59,292 nucleotides of DNA from a virus. Taxonomy: Duplodnaviria; Heunggongvirae; Uroviricota; Caudoviricetes. The notes under the pieces were generated by a model that ran no database searches, was not told the origin of the DNA, and was given only the letters and a program-made list of their open reading frames with translations. The stretch is taken from IMG/VR virus record IMGVR_UViG_2850784384_000007; one strand, 5' to 3'. A program made the translations under genes and the position numbers. Below are positions 31,777-35,222 of this stretch, piece after piece. The stretch's first letter is position 1. Each line of letters starts with the position of its first letter.

Positions 31777-32034
31777 TCAGCGCAGCGCCTCCTGCACCAG
31801 TTTTTCAAACTTTCCGACTCTGGTTTCCAGCTCTGCCACACAGTCCACCAGCTCATCTACTGCTTTCTGTGCGCGATGCTTCGCCTGCATCAGTTCCCGA
31901 AGCGCGGGTACCATATCTTTACGGATAGCATCTTTTGTTATGCCCGTTTTTTCGAGTTGTTCAGCATGACGCAGCATTTCCTGCGCGTGTTTACGCAATT
32001 GTTCAGGGGTAAAAGTCATTGTCTGGTTGTTCAA
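31777..32034 (-). CDS. hypothetical small coiled-coil protein
   Basis: 85-aa ORF, co-directional and abutting the DnaB-like gene; no family recognised. Confidence 0.4.
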   Translation of the reverse strand: MNNQTMTFTPEQLRKHAQEMLRHAEQLEKTGITKDAIRKDMVPALRELMQAKHRAQKAVDELVDCVAELETRVGKFEKLVQEALR

Positions 32035-33422
32035 AAGAAACGCTCCATCTTACTGCTGTCAGTTCGTTTATTACTGTATCTGCGCGGATTGCCGGGCTTC
32101 ATGGGAGTGGAAAGCACCCGTGCACTTTCCTGGTCCACAGGCAGAAAATGTCCGTTATAAAAACGCCGGTAAATCGTTCCCAGAGAACCGTTACGTTGTT
32201 TCGTGATATTGATTTCTGCGATGCCCCTGGCCTGCGTATCCGGGTTGTACACTTCATCCCTGTAAAGCATCAGAATGATGTCTGCATCCGCCTCTATTTC
32301 TCCGGAATTTTTCAGGTCTGAGTTCATGGGACGTTTATTGGGTCTGGACTCCACACCGCGGGAGAGCTGGCTCAGCGCAATCAACGGAAAACCACCGGAT
32401 TTTGCCAGGCCTTTAAGCCCCTTTGAGATTTCACCCACGGCAAGGTCATGACGCCCCGTGGTTCGGGTTTTTATCAGCCCGAGATAATCAACCACCACCA
32501 GCGCCGTTTCCGGATATTTAATCAGGTGGTGTTTCGTTGTTGCGCATATCTCATCAATGGCCAGGTTCGCCTGGTCCACCATCCAGATATTGCGCCCGGT
32601 CATCCGCCCCACCCCTTGTGAGAAACGCGTCCAGTCTTCATCTTCAAAGTGAGCCACAGATTTCAGGCGTGATACTGGCATCCCTCCAGCCGCAGACACC
32701 ATACGTTCACCAATCTGGATGTTCGCCATCTCCATGGTGAACAGAAGCACACCATGCCCCTGCTCAGTCACCTTGTCGATGATGTCCAGCGCAAGTTCGG
32801 TTTTCCCCATCGAAGGACGGGCGGCAATGAATACCAGGTCTCCGGGCTCCATACCGCCTGTTTTTGCGTCCAGTTCATCAATACCGGTCATCAACGTCCT
32901 GGATTTCTCCAGCCCCTGATTCCGGCATTCAACACGCTCAACCACTTCCGGAAGCACATCATCAATATGTACCGGCTGAATGACGCCCTTTCCTGTCGAC
33001 AGTGTGACCATCATGTTCTGCGCATCCTTCAGGGCATCTTCAGCTGCTTCACAGGTATGCGCATCACGTAATTTCTGCAGCGCCTCATTCAGTGTTTTTT
33101 CTGCATCGCGCAGTGCGGCATTGCGCCGCAACGCTGCAACATAGTGCTCCAGTGAAGACTTCACCCAGGTTTTACGCCCGGTATCAGTAATCACCGGGGC
33201 AAGTTCCGGCATCTCATTACACAACAGCACGGGGTCAATCACTCCTGAAACACGGGCCTGTCTGCAGATGCCTGTATAGATATCCTGATACGCTCGTACA
33301 GAAAAAACGTCCGCTGGCAGTGTGGCCAGAATATCCATCACTTCAGGATCTGCTCCGCGCAGAAAGAACGCGCCGATGACAGCGCCTTCAAGGTCATCGT
33401 TACGCCATACTGGAGTTGTCAT
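32031..33422 (-). CDS. replicative DNA helicase, DnaB family
   Basis: 463 aa with Walker A (ARPSMGKTELALD), RecA-like C-domain motifs (VVDYLGLI, SQLSRGVE, ILMLYRDEVY). Confidence 0.85.
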   Translation of the reverse strand: MTTPVWRNDDLEGAVIGAFFLRGADPEVMDILATLPADVFSVRAYQDIYTGICRQARVSGVIDPVLLCNEMPELAPVITDTGRKTWVKSSLEHYVAALRRNAALRDAEKTLNEALQKLRDAHTCEAAEDALKDAQNMMVTLSTGKGVIQPVHIDDVLPEVVERVECRNQGLEKSRTLMTGIDELDAKTGGMEPGDLVFIAARPSMGKTELALDIIDKVTEQGHGVLLFTMEMANIQIGERMVSAAGGMPVSRLKSVAHFEDEDWTRFSQGVGRMTGRNIWMVDQANLAIDEICATTKHHLIKYPETALVVVDYLGLIKTRTTGRHDLAVGEISKGLKGLAKSGGFPLIALSQLSRGVESRPNKRPMNSDLKNSGEIEADADIILMLYRDEVYNPDTQARGIAEINITKQRNGSLGTIYRRFYNGHFLPVDQESARVLSTPMKPGNPRRYSNKRTDSSKMERFF

Positions 33423-34306
33423 GCAGCCACACCTCTGATACGAGAACGGTAACTGGGCCAGTTAAACGACAACCAGTTGCGTCCCCCGTCTGTGATCCTG
33501 TCGGCAATTCGGGGACTGATGAACGCCCACAACTCTTCCGGTGAGAGGTTACTGATAAGAATGGTGGGCAAGATACTTTCGTACCTGGCGTTGATAATTT
33601 CCTGCAAAATAGCCATTTCAGCCGCGCTGCCAAACTGAACGCCAACTTCGTCGATGATCAGCAAATCCATTGACGCATAACGCTCAATAACTTCATCCGC
33701 TGTTTTTTCGCTGTCATTCCGCCAGCAATTTTTCACAGCACGGGTAAGGCGCATCACGTCGGTGATCTCCACACTGGCCAGATAGTTACGGATGATGTGT
33801 TTTGCCATAGCCACAGCCAGATGATTTTTTCCGGTACCACAACTGCCGGTCATAACAAGACTGGTACCGTTCTCCAGCATATCTGGCCAGTTCTCCGCAT
33901 AGCGGCGACAGGCCGCAAGATTTCTGGCTGCGCCAGGATTAACCTCCAGATAATTATCAAACTCGCAGTCCCGAAAACGCAGGGCAATTCCGGCGTTATC
34001 AGTCAGCTCTTCCGCCTTGATGGACGACAGCTCCATGGTCAAATCGTTGGCCTCAGCGATTAAGCAGTCAGGGCAGCATGAAATTTCTTCTCTGTCCTCG
34101 CCATTACGATCGCTCCACACCAGTATATGCGTGTGATATTCGCCATGTTTTTCGCAATATCCGCGACCTTCACGCATCAGGCAGGAACGATAAGGCCATG
34201 GCTTTTCGCCCTTCTGAGCAAATGCAATCTCTGCCCGTAACTCATCCATTCGCGCCTGTAGTCTTTTTTGTTGTTCACGCAGGTTAAACGTCATCATCGC
34301 TGTCAC
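33419..34306 (-). CDS. DnaC/IstB-like AAA+ helicase loader with Cys/His-rich N-terminal region
   Basis: 295 aa; Walker A GSCGTGKNHLAVAMA, Walker B LLIIDEVG; N-terminal CEKHGEYHTH...CCPDC. Confidence 0.8.
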   Translation of the reverse strand: MTAMMTFNLREQQKRLQARMDELRAEIAFAQKGEKPWPYRSCLMREGRGYCEKHGEYHTHILVWSDRNGEDREEISCCPDCLIAEANDLTMELSSIKAEELTDNAGIALRFRDCEFDNYLEVNPGAARNLAACRRYAENWPDMLENGTSLVMTGSCGTGKNHLAVAMAKHIIRNYLASVEITDVMRLTRAVKNCWRNDSEKTADEVIERYASMDLLIIDEVGVQFGSAAEMAILQEIINARYESILPTILISNLSPEELWAFISPRIADRITDGGRNWLSFNWPSYRSRIRGVAA

Positions 34307-34307
34307 C

Positions 34308-35222
34308 TCAGAATGTCAGTTTGTCACTGGATTTACCGAATTTGTCAGACATGGCTCCCAGGCCAGCCAGGACATCGACCTGTCGCTGTCGCCCACCTCT
34401 GGGAGCGGCTGGCTGTTGCCAGAAGTCTTCGAAGTGACGATCGGGTCCAAAGAACGTCGCAGCCTGCTTCACGAACTGTGTGCCGGTATTTCCTGTGGCA
34501 CGTACCCAGGCAGCATAGCGTTTCACGCCATCAAGCATGGCTTCAGGTTTTATTCCCTCCCTGAGCCGGGCTTTCCAGGCTTTGAAGGCTGCGGATTTTG
34601 AGTTACCACCAGCACGTTTTGGATATTCCTGCCAGGCCTGTTCAAATTCCGGTGAATATTCCTGTCGGGAAGAACGCGCTGGTGCAGACGCGTCAGCGGA
34701 TGCGCCAATAGTGTTTTTACTCTCTGTAGTATTCTCTGAAGTAATCTCTGTTGTATTCTCTGTAAGATCGAAATTGGTTTTCCCTTCTCCGCGGCGAGGG
34801 GTTTCCCGTGTCCGCGGTGAAGGCTTTCCCTCCTCCGCGAAATTGGGTTTTACAGTTTCCCGAAAACGGGTTTCCCCATTTCGGGAAAACTGATTGTTTT
34901 CATTGATAATTTCATTAAGGCGCTCACAATCTATACGGTAGAACATTTTGTGCTCAAGACGCTTGTTGGTTTCAACCAAAATGCCTCTGGACACAAGATG
35001 CTTACGCGCTACAGCCTGTTGTTCAAATGTAAGTCCGGTTTCGTGTTGTATCTCTTCACGCGTTTTATGTACGCCTTCCGCTGCATGTGCTTTATCCTGC
35101 CAGTAAAAAATCTGACCAAAGAAAATAACAGCGTGCGGACTTCCCATGTATTTAACGAGCCCAGGGTAATAAGCAACCGGATGTCCAAAATCGAGCAGAA
35201 GATCAGACGGACGCATAGCCAC
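34308..35222 (-). CDS. phage replication initiator / replisome organizer (O-like role) containing ori iterons
   Basis: 304 aa; first gene of initiator-loader-helicase triad; low-complexity linker encoded by the iteron DNA. Confidence 0.6.
   Translation of the reverse strand: MAMRPSDLLLDFGHPVAYYPGLVKYMGSPHAVIFFGQIFYWQDKAHAAEGVHKTREEIQHETGLTFEQQAVARKHLVSRGILVETNKRLEHKMFYRIDCERLNEIINENNQFSRNGETRFRETVKPNFAEEGKPSPRTRETPRRGEGKTNFDLTENTTEITSENTTESKNTIGASADASAPARSSRQEYSPEFEQAWQEYPKRAGGNSKSAAFKAWKARLREGIKPEAMLDGVKRYAAWVRATGNTGTQFVKQAATFFGPDRHFEDFWQQPAAPRGGRQRQVDVLAGLGAMSDKFGKSSDKLTF
34776..34885. repeat. iteron array (candidate replication origin) inside the initiator gene
   Basis: Five direct repeats at ~22-23-bp spacing: GGTTTTCCCTTCTCCGCGG, GGGTTTCCCGTGTCCGCGG, GGCTTTCCCTCCTCCGCGA, GGGTTTTACAGTTTCCCGA, GGGTTTCCCCATTTCGGGA. 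Confidence 0.5.

Follow-up and report, generated by a model that had tools for sequence, protein, structure and literature searches.

Origins of replication that lie inside the gene for the initiator protein are known from several bacteriophages. The iterons of phage lambda are about 19 bp long, and the lambdoid Salmonella phage P22 (genes 18 and 12) combines an origin within its initiator gene with a DnaB-type helicase of its own. Bacillus phage SPP1 encodes a triad of initiator, loader and DnaB-type helicase (G38P, G39P and G40P), with an origin inside the initiator gene and a loader that brings the phage helicase to the complex of initiator and origin. The lambda origin lies centrally within O and is made up of iterons and an AT-rich tract (PMC7466680). 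The window analyzed here, a stretch of 59,292 nt of IMG/VR record IMGVR_UViG_2850784384_000007 (Caudoviricetes) to whose full length all coordinates refer, carries genes for an initiator, a DnaC-like helicase loader and a DnaB-family replicative helicase, located between lambda-type ninB and ninE genes on one side and a ninH gene on the other. We consider it probable that this triad belongs to an intact replication module of the type found in phage phiP27 and the 'Eru7' Shiga toxin (Stx) phages, with an origin inside its initiator gene, and that it came to lie behind ninB and ninE through a single crossover between two phages.

Comparison of the gene calls with Pfam, PHROGs, NCBIfam and PDB sequences bears out the complete initiator, loader and helicase set that an earlier inspection of the DNA letters (the sequence-only reading) had proposed. 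The initiator (302 amino acids; 34308–35216) matches phrog_270, 'replication initiation protein' (E 2.5e-64), and gave no Pfam family at E <= 0.01 and no NCBIfam match; it differs from lambda O in having no sequence relation to Pfam Phage_rep_O, the lambda O family, and the 'O-like' PHROG groups are linked to it weakly. The loader (292 amino acids; 33419–34297) matches Pfam IstB_IS21 (PF01695; 57.7 bits against a cut-off of 24.1) and phrog_50, 'DnaC-like helicase loader'; its residues 88–289 align with residues 46–242 of Escherichia coli DnaC (6QEL, E 5.3e-31), and its Walker A (GTGKN) and Walker B (DLLIIDE) motifs are invariant in an alignment of 32 homologues. The helicase (463 amino acids; 32031–33422) scores above the cut-offs of both DnaB_C (PF03796, 243.5 bits) and the DnaB N-domain (PF00772, 24.8 bits), also matches phrog_19, and remains below the equivalog cut-off of TIGR00665 (307.7 bits against 385). 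An AAA+ DnaC-like loader accompanied by a phage-encoded DnaB-type helicase differs from the lambda arrangement, in which P captures the host DnaB, and from that of P22, which to our knowledge has no separate AAA+ loader gene. The presumed delivery of a phage helicase by a dedicated loader makes SPP1 the likeness in this respect, although G39P is not an AAA+ protein, the SPP1 host is Gram-positive, and we know of no detectable sequence relation between the SPP1 triad and the present one.

The full-length AlphaFold2 model of the initiator is poor overall, with a mean predicted local distance difference test score (pLDDT) of 58, and lays the protein out as a winged-helix N-terminal domain (residues 1–109; pLDDT 70–88 at residues 11–100), a disordered linker (residues 110–184; pLDDT about 30) and a helical C-terminal domain (residues 189–256; pLDDT 67–78 at residues 190–240). 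Foldseek matches to this model were confined to the N-terminal domain, the C-terminal domain giving none, and consisted of winged-helix proteins that include the plasmid Rep initiators 5kbj and 4pt7, at weak significance (E about 0.05). The predicted linker is exactly the part of the protein encoded by the candidate origin. Five 23-bp iterons in register, phased at close to two helical turns (34777–34891; coding-strand consensus.TtttCGCGgA...GGGAAAcCC), which encode residues 109–147, are followed directly downstream in the gene by a tract of 12-bp repeats (ACAGAGAWTACW; 34718–34776) that is 66% AT, against 50% for the whole initiator gene, and is a candidate DNA-unwinding element. The best 23-bp self-match scores 0.674, as compared with a mean of 0.417 (sd 0.020, maximum 0.476) over 300 codon shuffles (z about 13), and a repeat finder and Tandem Repeats Finder alone recovered only three clear copies. 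The sequence-only reading had described five repeats of about 19 bp at a 22–23-bp periodicity (34776–34885); its count holds, with the unit length and limits corrected as above.

The repeats are conserved in homologous initiator genes. The orthologues of Klebsiella, Serratia and Pantoea, at 62–73% protein identity, each have five 23-bp units at the same position in the gene (nt 327–441) and share the GGGAAAMCC core. When these three genes and the one in the window are aligned by codon, the fraction of invariant sites at codon positions 1, 2 and 3 and at the amino acid level is, respectively, 0.81, 0.88, 0.19 and 0.77 for the N-terminal domain and 0.66, 0.69, 0.25 and 0.52 for the C-terminal domain, as against 0.54, 0.59, 0.62 and 0.36 for the iteron segment and 0.81, 0.62, 0.88 and 0.50 for the AT-rich tract. 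This inverted codon-position pattern in the iteron and AT-rich segments indicates a constraint at the DNA level superimposed on the coding sequence. A different origin for the repeats, as a side effect of encoding a repetitive linker of low complexity, with no function in cis, would agree with the disordered and charged nature of the linker they encode, with the capacity of repeat-containing linkers to expand by slippage, and with a relative (L101) that lost most units and kept its open reading frame (ORF). It is nevertheless highly improbable. The period of 23 bp is not a multiple of three and the units are read in all three frames, so that they are not an amino acid repeat, and the protein is not repetitive in register; amino acid invariance in the segment falls well short of third-position invariance (0.36 against 0.62), when the third positions of the folded domains reach just 0.19–0.25; and different N-terminal domains carry different repeats at the same place.

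This last point emerges from a survey of 80 IMG/VR loci and annotated relatives, in which five unrelated classes of initiator N-terminal domain share one near-invariant C-terminal domain. Four of the five classes have a clear repeat family of their own at the equivalent place, among them the C5 class (TGTGGAAACCCCGCAAAC, five copies at 23 bp), the phiP27 class (CCNTCAGAWTCTGR, five copies) and the L039 class (TTCACCAGGTGGTAGTGCA, four copies), and three classes with different iterons have the AT-rich tract in common. DNA homology between classes ends at the border of linker and C-terminal domain (34710 for phiP27 and 34767 for C5). These comparisons indicate that the initiator is modular, with swappable cassettes of N-terminal domain and iterons mounted on a constant C-terminal domain that pairs with one loader-helicase pair. 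The same holds for lambda, where N-terminal domain and iterons are exchanged together between phages and the C-terminal domain stays with its partner, where the origin is encoded between a DNA-binding N-terminal domain and a C-terminal domain that recruits the helicase machinery, and where, in the O/P/ori region as in lambdoid Stx phages, phased iterons precede an AT-rich tract inside the initiator gene; lambda has four to six iterons, as opposed to five 23-bp units here. The iterons and AT-rich tract of the disordered linker hence fit a lambda-style candidate origin, delimited to about 175 bp (34718–34891), and the proposal that the repeats are origin iterons like those in lambda O gains support from their conservation in orthologues and their class-wise covariation. 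Deletion between repeats has apparently removed most of the 23-bp iterons from a C5-class initiator gene in the L101 locus (4001–4909), whose reading frame is still open; it may be a natural origin-defective variant.

Constraint at the DNA level and covariation with the N-terminal domain are the behavior of binding sites rather than of unwinding as such, and plasmid iterons serve replication and control alike. The repeats could accordingly be conceived as protein-binding sites for another purpose, such as autoregulation of the operon, 'handcuffing' in copy-number control, or the binding of a host factor. We regard this as unlikely, for phased sites that adjoin conserved AT-rich repeats, inside an initiator gene and next to loader and helicase genes, are what characterized phage origins look like (PMC7466680), and the module showed no second candidate origin. 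The 'P27' phage of that study has a lambda-type O and is not to be confused with the phiP27 module. Motifs resembling DnaA boxes were absent from the initiator gene. We found no paper on this candidate origin, which carries the paradigm of the lambda origin over to a further family of initiators and, together with the modular initiator, offers a handle on replication control in the phages that drive Shiga toxin output.

The module is that of phiP27 (NC_003356) and the 'Eru7' Stx phages (for instance LC567818 and LC567819), in which p85 (a small gene next to the helicase gene), the DnaB and DnaC genes and the initiator C-terminal domain have 89–94% DNA identity with the window and the gene order is cI-cro-Rha/Ant-p77-initiator-DnaC-DnaB-p85-Q. 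LC567818 is listed as the Eru7 reference in PMC8951638, which states that nothing is known of the replication proteins of Eru phages, a widespread non-lambda group of Stx-type phages in which these proteins are annotated. The module of phiP27 has a different N-terminal domain and different iterons; none of these phages has ninB or ninE upstream, and most lack ninH. More generally, the canonical site of the triad (cI-cro-...-initiator-DnaC-DnaB-(RusA)-Q), as seen in phiP27, an Stx1a phage, an E. coli O121 prophage, strain C5, Klebsiella and Pantoea, comes after the immunity region and regulators and is without ninB and ninE.

In the window, the replication module and its flanking phage genes all lie on the minus strand, with the exception of an oppositely oriented HigB/HigA-like pair. 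Transcription would pass first through what is left of the 3' part of a toprim primase/helicase gene, cut by an insertion sequence (IS) element (37917–38096; phrog_23248 'DNA primase', E 1.8e-39), which is followed by a phiTE_015-like ORF (37564–37857), ninB (37157–37567; Pfam NinB, 189 bits), ninE (36984–37160; Pfam NinE, 139 bits), the opposite-strand pair of a HigA-like helix-turn-helix (HTH) antitoxin (36634–36942, annotated as an HTH protein) and a HigB/RelE-like toxin (36315–36644, annotated as a RelE/ParE toxin), an Ash/Rha regulator pseudogene (35433–36293; Pfam Phage_pRha), p77, the initiator, the loader, the helicase, p85, ninH (31482–31685; Pfam Phage_NinH, 91 bits) and the Q antiterminator gene (31109–31525; Pfam Phage_antitermQ, 181 bits). 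Two kinds of phage DNA meet in this series. Positions 30026–36277, ninH and Q included, are 99.76% identical by blastn to the E. coli O121 prophage (L003; NZ_CP119441), which has the order cI-cro-Rha...-triad-NinH-Q and no ninB or ninE; positions 36287–37175 are 96.7% identical to two lambdoid prophages (L005 and L007). The breakpoint at 36277–36287 thus separates phiP27-like DNA, leftwards, from lambdoid nin-region DNA, rightwards. The nin region of the lambdoid prophages L005–L007 reads NinB-(methylase)-NinE-HigBA-antirepressor-RusA-NinH-Q, and their replication gene is a toprim primase, with the end of which (in L005) the toprim remnant of the window is 97.8% identical; in one genome (L017) the toprim gene has suffered an IS insertion and is otherwise still complete.

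The sequence-only reading had taken the odd gene order to suggest a mosaic insertion or replacement within a nin region, and the mosaic part of this claim stands. In such a scheme, a replication cassette would have been inserted into, or would have replaced part of, a once-continuous lambda-type nin region running from ninB-ninE to ninH. Taken at face value, the gene order suggests as much, and lambdoid prophages with the order NinB-NinE-HigBA-Ant-RusA-NinH-Q do exist; we nonetheless judge the scheme very unlikely. Q, ninH, p85, the triad and the DNA as far as the 5' end of Ash/Rha are, as a whole, nearly identical to a prophage devoid of ninB and ninE, ninH travels with the triad, and the NinH gene is only about 79% identical, over 115 bp, to that of nin-type relatives. 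The stretch from ninB to ninH is not one inherited block, ninB/ninE and ninH matching different parental phages; given the identity through ninH and Q to the O121 prophage, the downstream neighbors of the triad are therefore native to its phage type. At 31773 the window ceases to match phiP27, the Stx1a phage and strain C5, and the O121 prophage goes on through NinH-Q, which points to a second, older mosaic boundary at about this position and identifies ninH, by comparison, as native to this variant of the phiP27-like phage. One junction alone, that at 36277–36287, rather than the two an insertion calls for, is special to this lineage, as a crossover between two phage types that left remnants of a second replication module (the toprim primase) upstream.

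The HigBA/antirepressor cassette, common to both parental phage types, is the likely site of this crossover, since HigBA also lies upstream of the triad in phiP27-like phages (L004, L019, L032, L035, L069 and L101), three of which (L004, L019 and L101) have the order HigBA-Rha-p77-triad. In this single-crossover scenario, one parent would have been a lambdoid phage that replicated by a toprim-primase replicon and had a cassette of HigBA and Ash/Rha-antirepressor in its nin region, and the other a phiP27-like phage in which a cassette of this kind lay immediately upstream of the replication genes; one crossover in the shared cassette or at its edge would yield the observed order, in a recombinant endowed with both replicons, which would later have decayed in Shigella flexneri through IS insertions, a nonsense codon in Ash/Rha and truncation of the primase gene. 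In this way, a toxin-antitoxin/antirepressor cassette that two phages share can serve as a recombination linker between non-equivalent positions of their maps, and recombination of this kind explains the otherwise puzzling S. flexneri gene order. In L006 (E. coli VL40), the intergenic DNA between antirepressor and HigB (8374–8638) is 90% identical to the 5' part of Ash/Rha (36025–36287 of the window); it looks like a relic, as if HigBA and the 5' end of ash traveled as a cassette.

Several observations weigh against the combination of a lambda-style origin with a single crossover. The two 5'-proximal iterons are more diverged than the others, yet keep the GGGAAAMCC core, and the repeats of the L026 class are weak, so the rule that every class has iterons rests on four clear classes. 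The most AT-rich 40 bp of the initiator gene (34879–34918, 75% AT) lie on the iteron flank opposite to the proposed unwinding element, and hence either flank, 34718–34776 or 34879–34918, may be the one that melts. No convincing sigma-70 promoter was found upstream on the coding strand. Neither of the exact parents was found, and the crossover point borders on the shared homology without lying inside it, which makes illegitimate recombination possible.

The hybrid order appears to be fixed in S. flexneri. It occurs in none of 50,697 phage records and none of 5,426 complete E. coli genomes, and it is present in all 10 of the genome contexts returned for the exact initiator protein, every one of S. 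flexneri type. The exact initiator protein is indexed in 3185 sample blocks, and the exact triad proteins, named as Shigella flexneri or Shigella, are each found on at least 1000 contigs. As the same order recurs in many independent complete genomes, we rejected an assembly artefact as its cause; we found no paper on the S. flexneri hybrid. Relative to the O121 copy, the initiator differs by one base, the loader by five and the helicase by none, and all three genes are intact. The Ash/Rha gene, compared with the intact 286-amino-acid gene of L003, has a nonsense codon (35943–35945) and its first codons have been replaced at the joint. A scan with promoter consensus sequences returned fewer sites than in shuffled sequences and, for the coding strand, no site upstream of p77, and there is neither an immunity region nor an early promoter adjoining the module in the Shigella copy. 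In spite of its intact genes, the triad is thus probably silent in this copy. We may speculate, with little confidence, that the ancestor was a viable temperate phage with two complete and unrelated replicons, that of the toprim primase/helicase on the one hand and the triad with its origin on the other, and that S. flexneri kept the latter, as neighboring genes decayed, against phages of the same replication specificity, the proposal being that a resident origin plus initiator would interfere with the replication of an incoming phage and was kept intact for this reason. Titration of origin or initiator of this kind has been described for lambda (PMC3349717; PMC4488673).

The loader departs from a standard one in the 87 residues that precede the DnaC-like part (34037–34297). 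The loader falls below the cut-off of the DnaC equivalog (NCBIfam NF005931; 132.9 bits against 357) and, by these comparisons, is best described as a DnaC-like paralogue with a different N-terminus. The N-terminal extension contains five cysteines (Cys39, 48, 74, 75 and 78) and three histidines (His51, 55 and 57), and had been singled out in the sequence-only reading as Cys/His-rich and atypical of DnaC; this is correct, with the caution that four of the eight residues are conserved. Across the 32 homologues, from many Enterobacterales genera, C48, H51, C75 and C78 are the only invariant residues of the extension, forming the motif C48-x2-H51 ... C75-x2-C78. AlphaFold2 (mean pLDDT 80) predicts a helical hairpin whose tip carries an inserted three-stranded sheet (helices 2–29 and 76–107; strands 40–48, 52–62 and 68–72), and places the four invariant residues where the hairpin turns and where the second helix begins, in a geometry typical of a zinc knuckle or treble clef. 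The extension may thus constitute a zinc module that contacts the helicase. The loader's AAA+ domain and the helix before it can be aligned with E. coli DnaC (6QEL), and the predicted hairpin recalls the helicase-binding N-terminus of DnaC, but the first 87 residues have no counterpart there. Bacillus DnaI is a precedent for a zinc-binding, helicase-interacting domain in a loader, yet matches the present protein through the AAA+ domain only. A PDB sequence search with the extension gave no match, no structural relatives could be named, and a word-index protein search with the extension alone returned just fragments from close relatives. An exhaustive search of 1.84 billion cluster representatives yielded only 14 relatives, with no distant family that could be named, and on this basis the module is confined to this family of prophage loaders.

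By analogy with lambda O/ori and SPP1 G38P/G39P/G40P, replication from the module can be envisaged as follows. The winged-helix N-terminal domain of the initiator would bind the iterons and form a nucleoprotein complex, upon which the AT-rich tract would melt. The invariant C-terminal domain would then recruit the phage's own helicase, brought by the AAA+ loader, which would presumably hold the helicase by its helical-hairpin N-terminus and the putative zinc module there, and host primase and polymerase would take over last. The module would accordingly work like the origin-in-initiator modules of lambda, P22 and SPP1, with parts of known kinds and without overturning expectations.

Two small genes complete the module. 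The 77-amino-acid gene p77 (35203–35436; phrog_1153) overlaps the start of the initiator gene and is found upstream of it in 77 of the 80 IMG/VR loci, the other loci running out of upstream DNA, and the 85-amino-acid coiled-coil gene p85 (31777–32034; phrog_2565) overlaps the stop of the helicase gene and accompanies the triad in 76 of the 80, the others running out of DNA on that side. Both overlap a neighboring gene and are therefore probably members of the replication operon. Upstream, a strong terminator-like hairpin with a T run (37864–37887, minus strand) stands between the toprim remnant and the phiTE_015-like ORF, at the site where lambdoid phages carry a terminator ahead of the nin region, and IS elements start at 38145. 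Downstream, Q is followed by a tRNA cluster and lysis genes, and a 209-amino-acid ORF without a Pfam match (29458–30087, minus strand), conserved in S. flexneri copies, lies between the holin and lysozyme genes.

The window also contains the remnant of a second prophage, oriented alike and riddled with IS elements (40649–48127), with a cI-like gene (47720–48127, plus strand), cro-like, YdaT-like and DUF977 genes, a different initiator (46288–46932; phrog_2509), a DnaC-like gene split in two (45396–46142), QueH (43711–44397), a truncated DUF1133/Q-like gene, a cluster of tRNA genes and a fragment of a holin gene that IS600 has cut. The same cluster of four tRNA genes (Gly-Thr-Arg-Met) occurs twice (30599–30909 and 41422–41731), each time downstream of a Q-type antiterminator gene, and the two clusters are the late-region starts of two prophages. 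At the prophage end, beside phage tail genes, lies an ipaH gene (1060–2823, plus strand) for an IpaH-type type III effector with LRR_TTSS and NEL E3 ligase domains.

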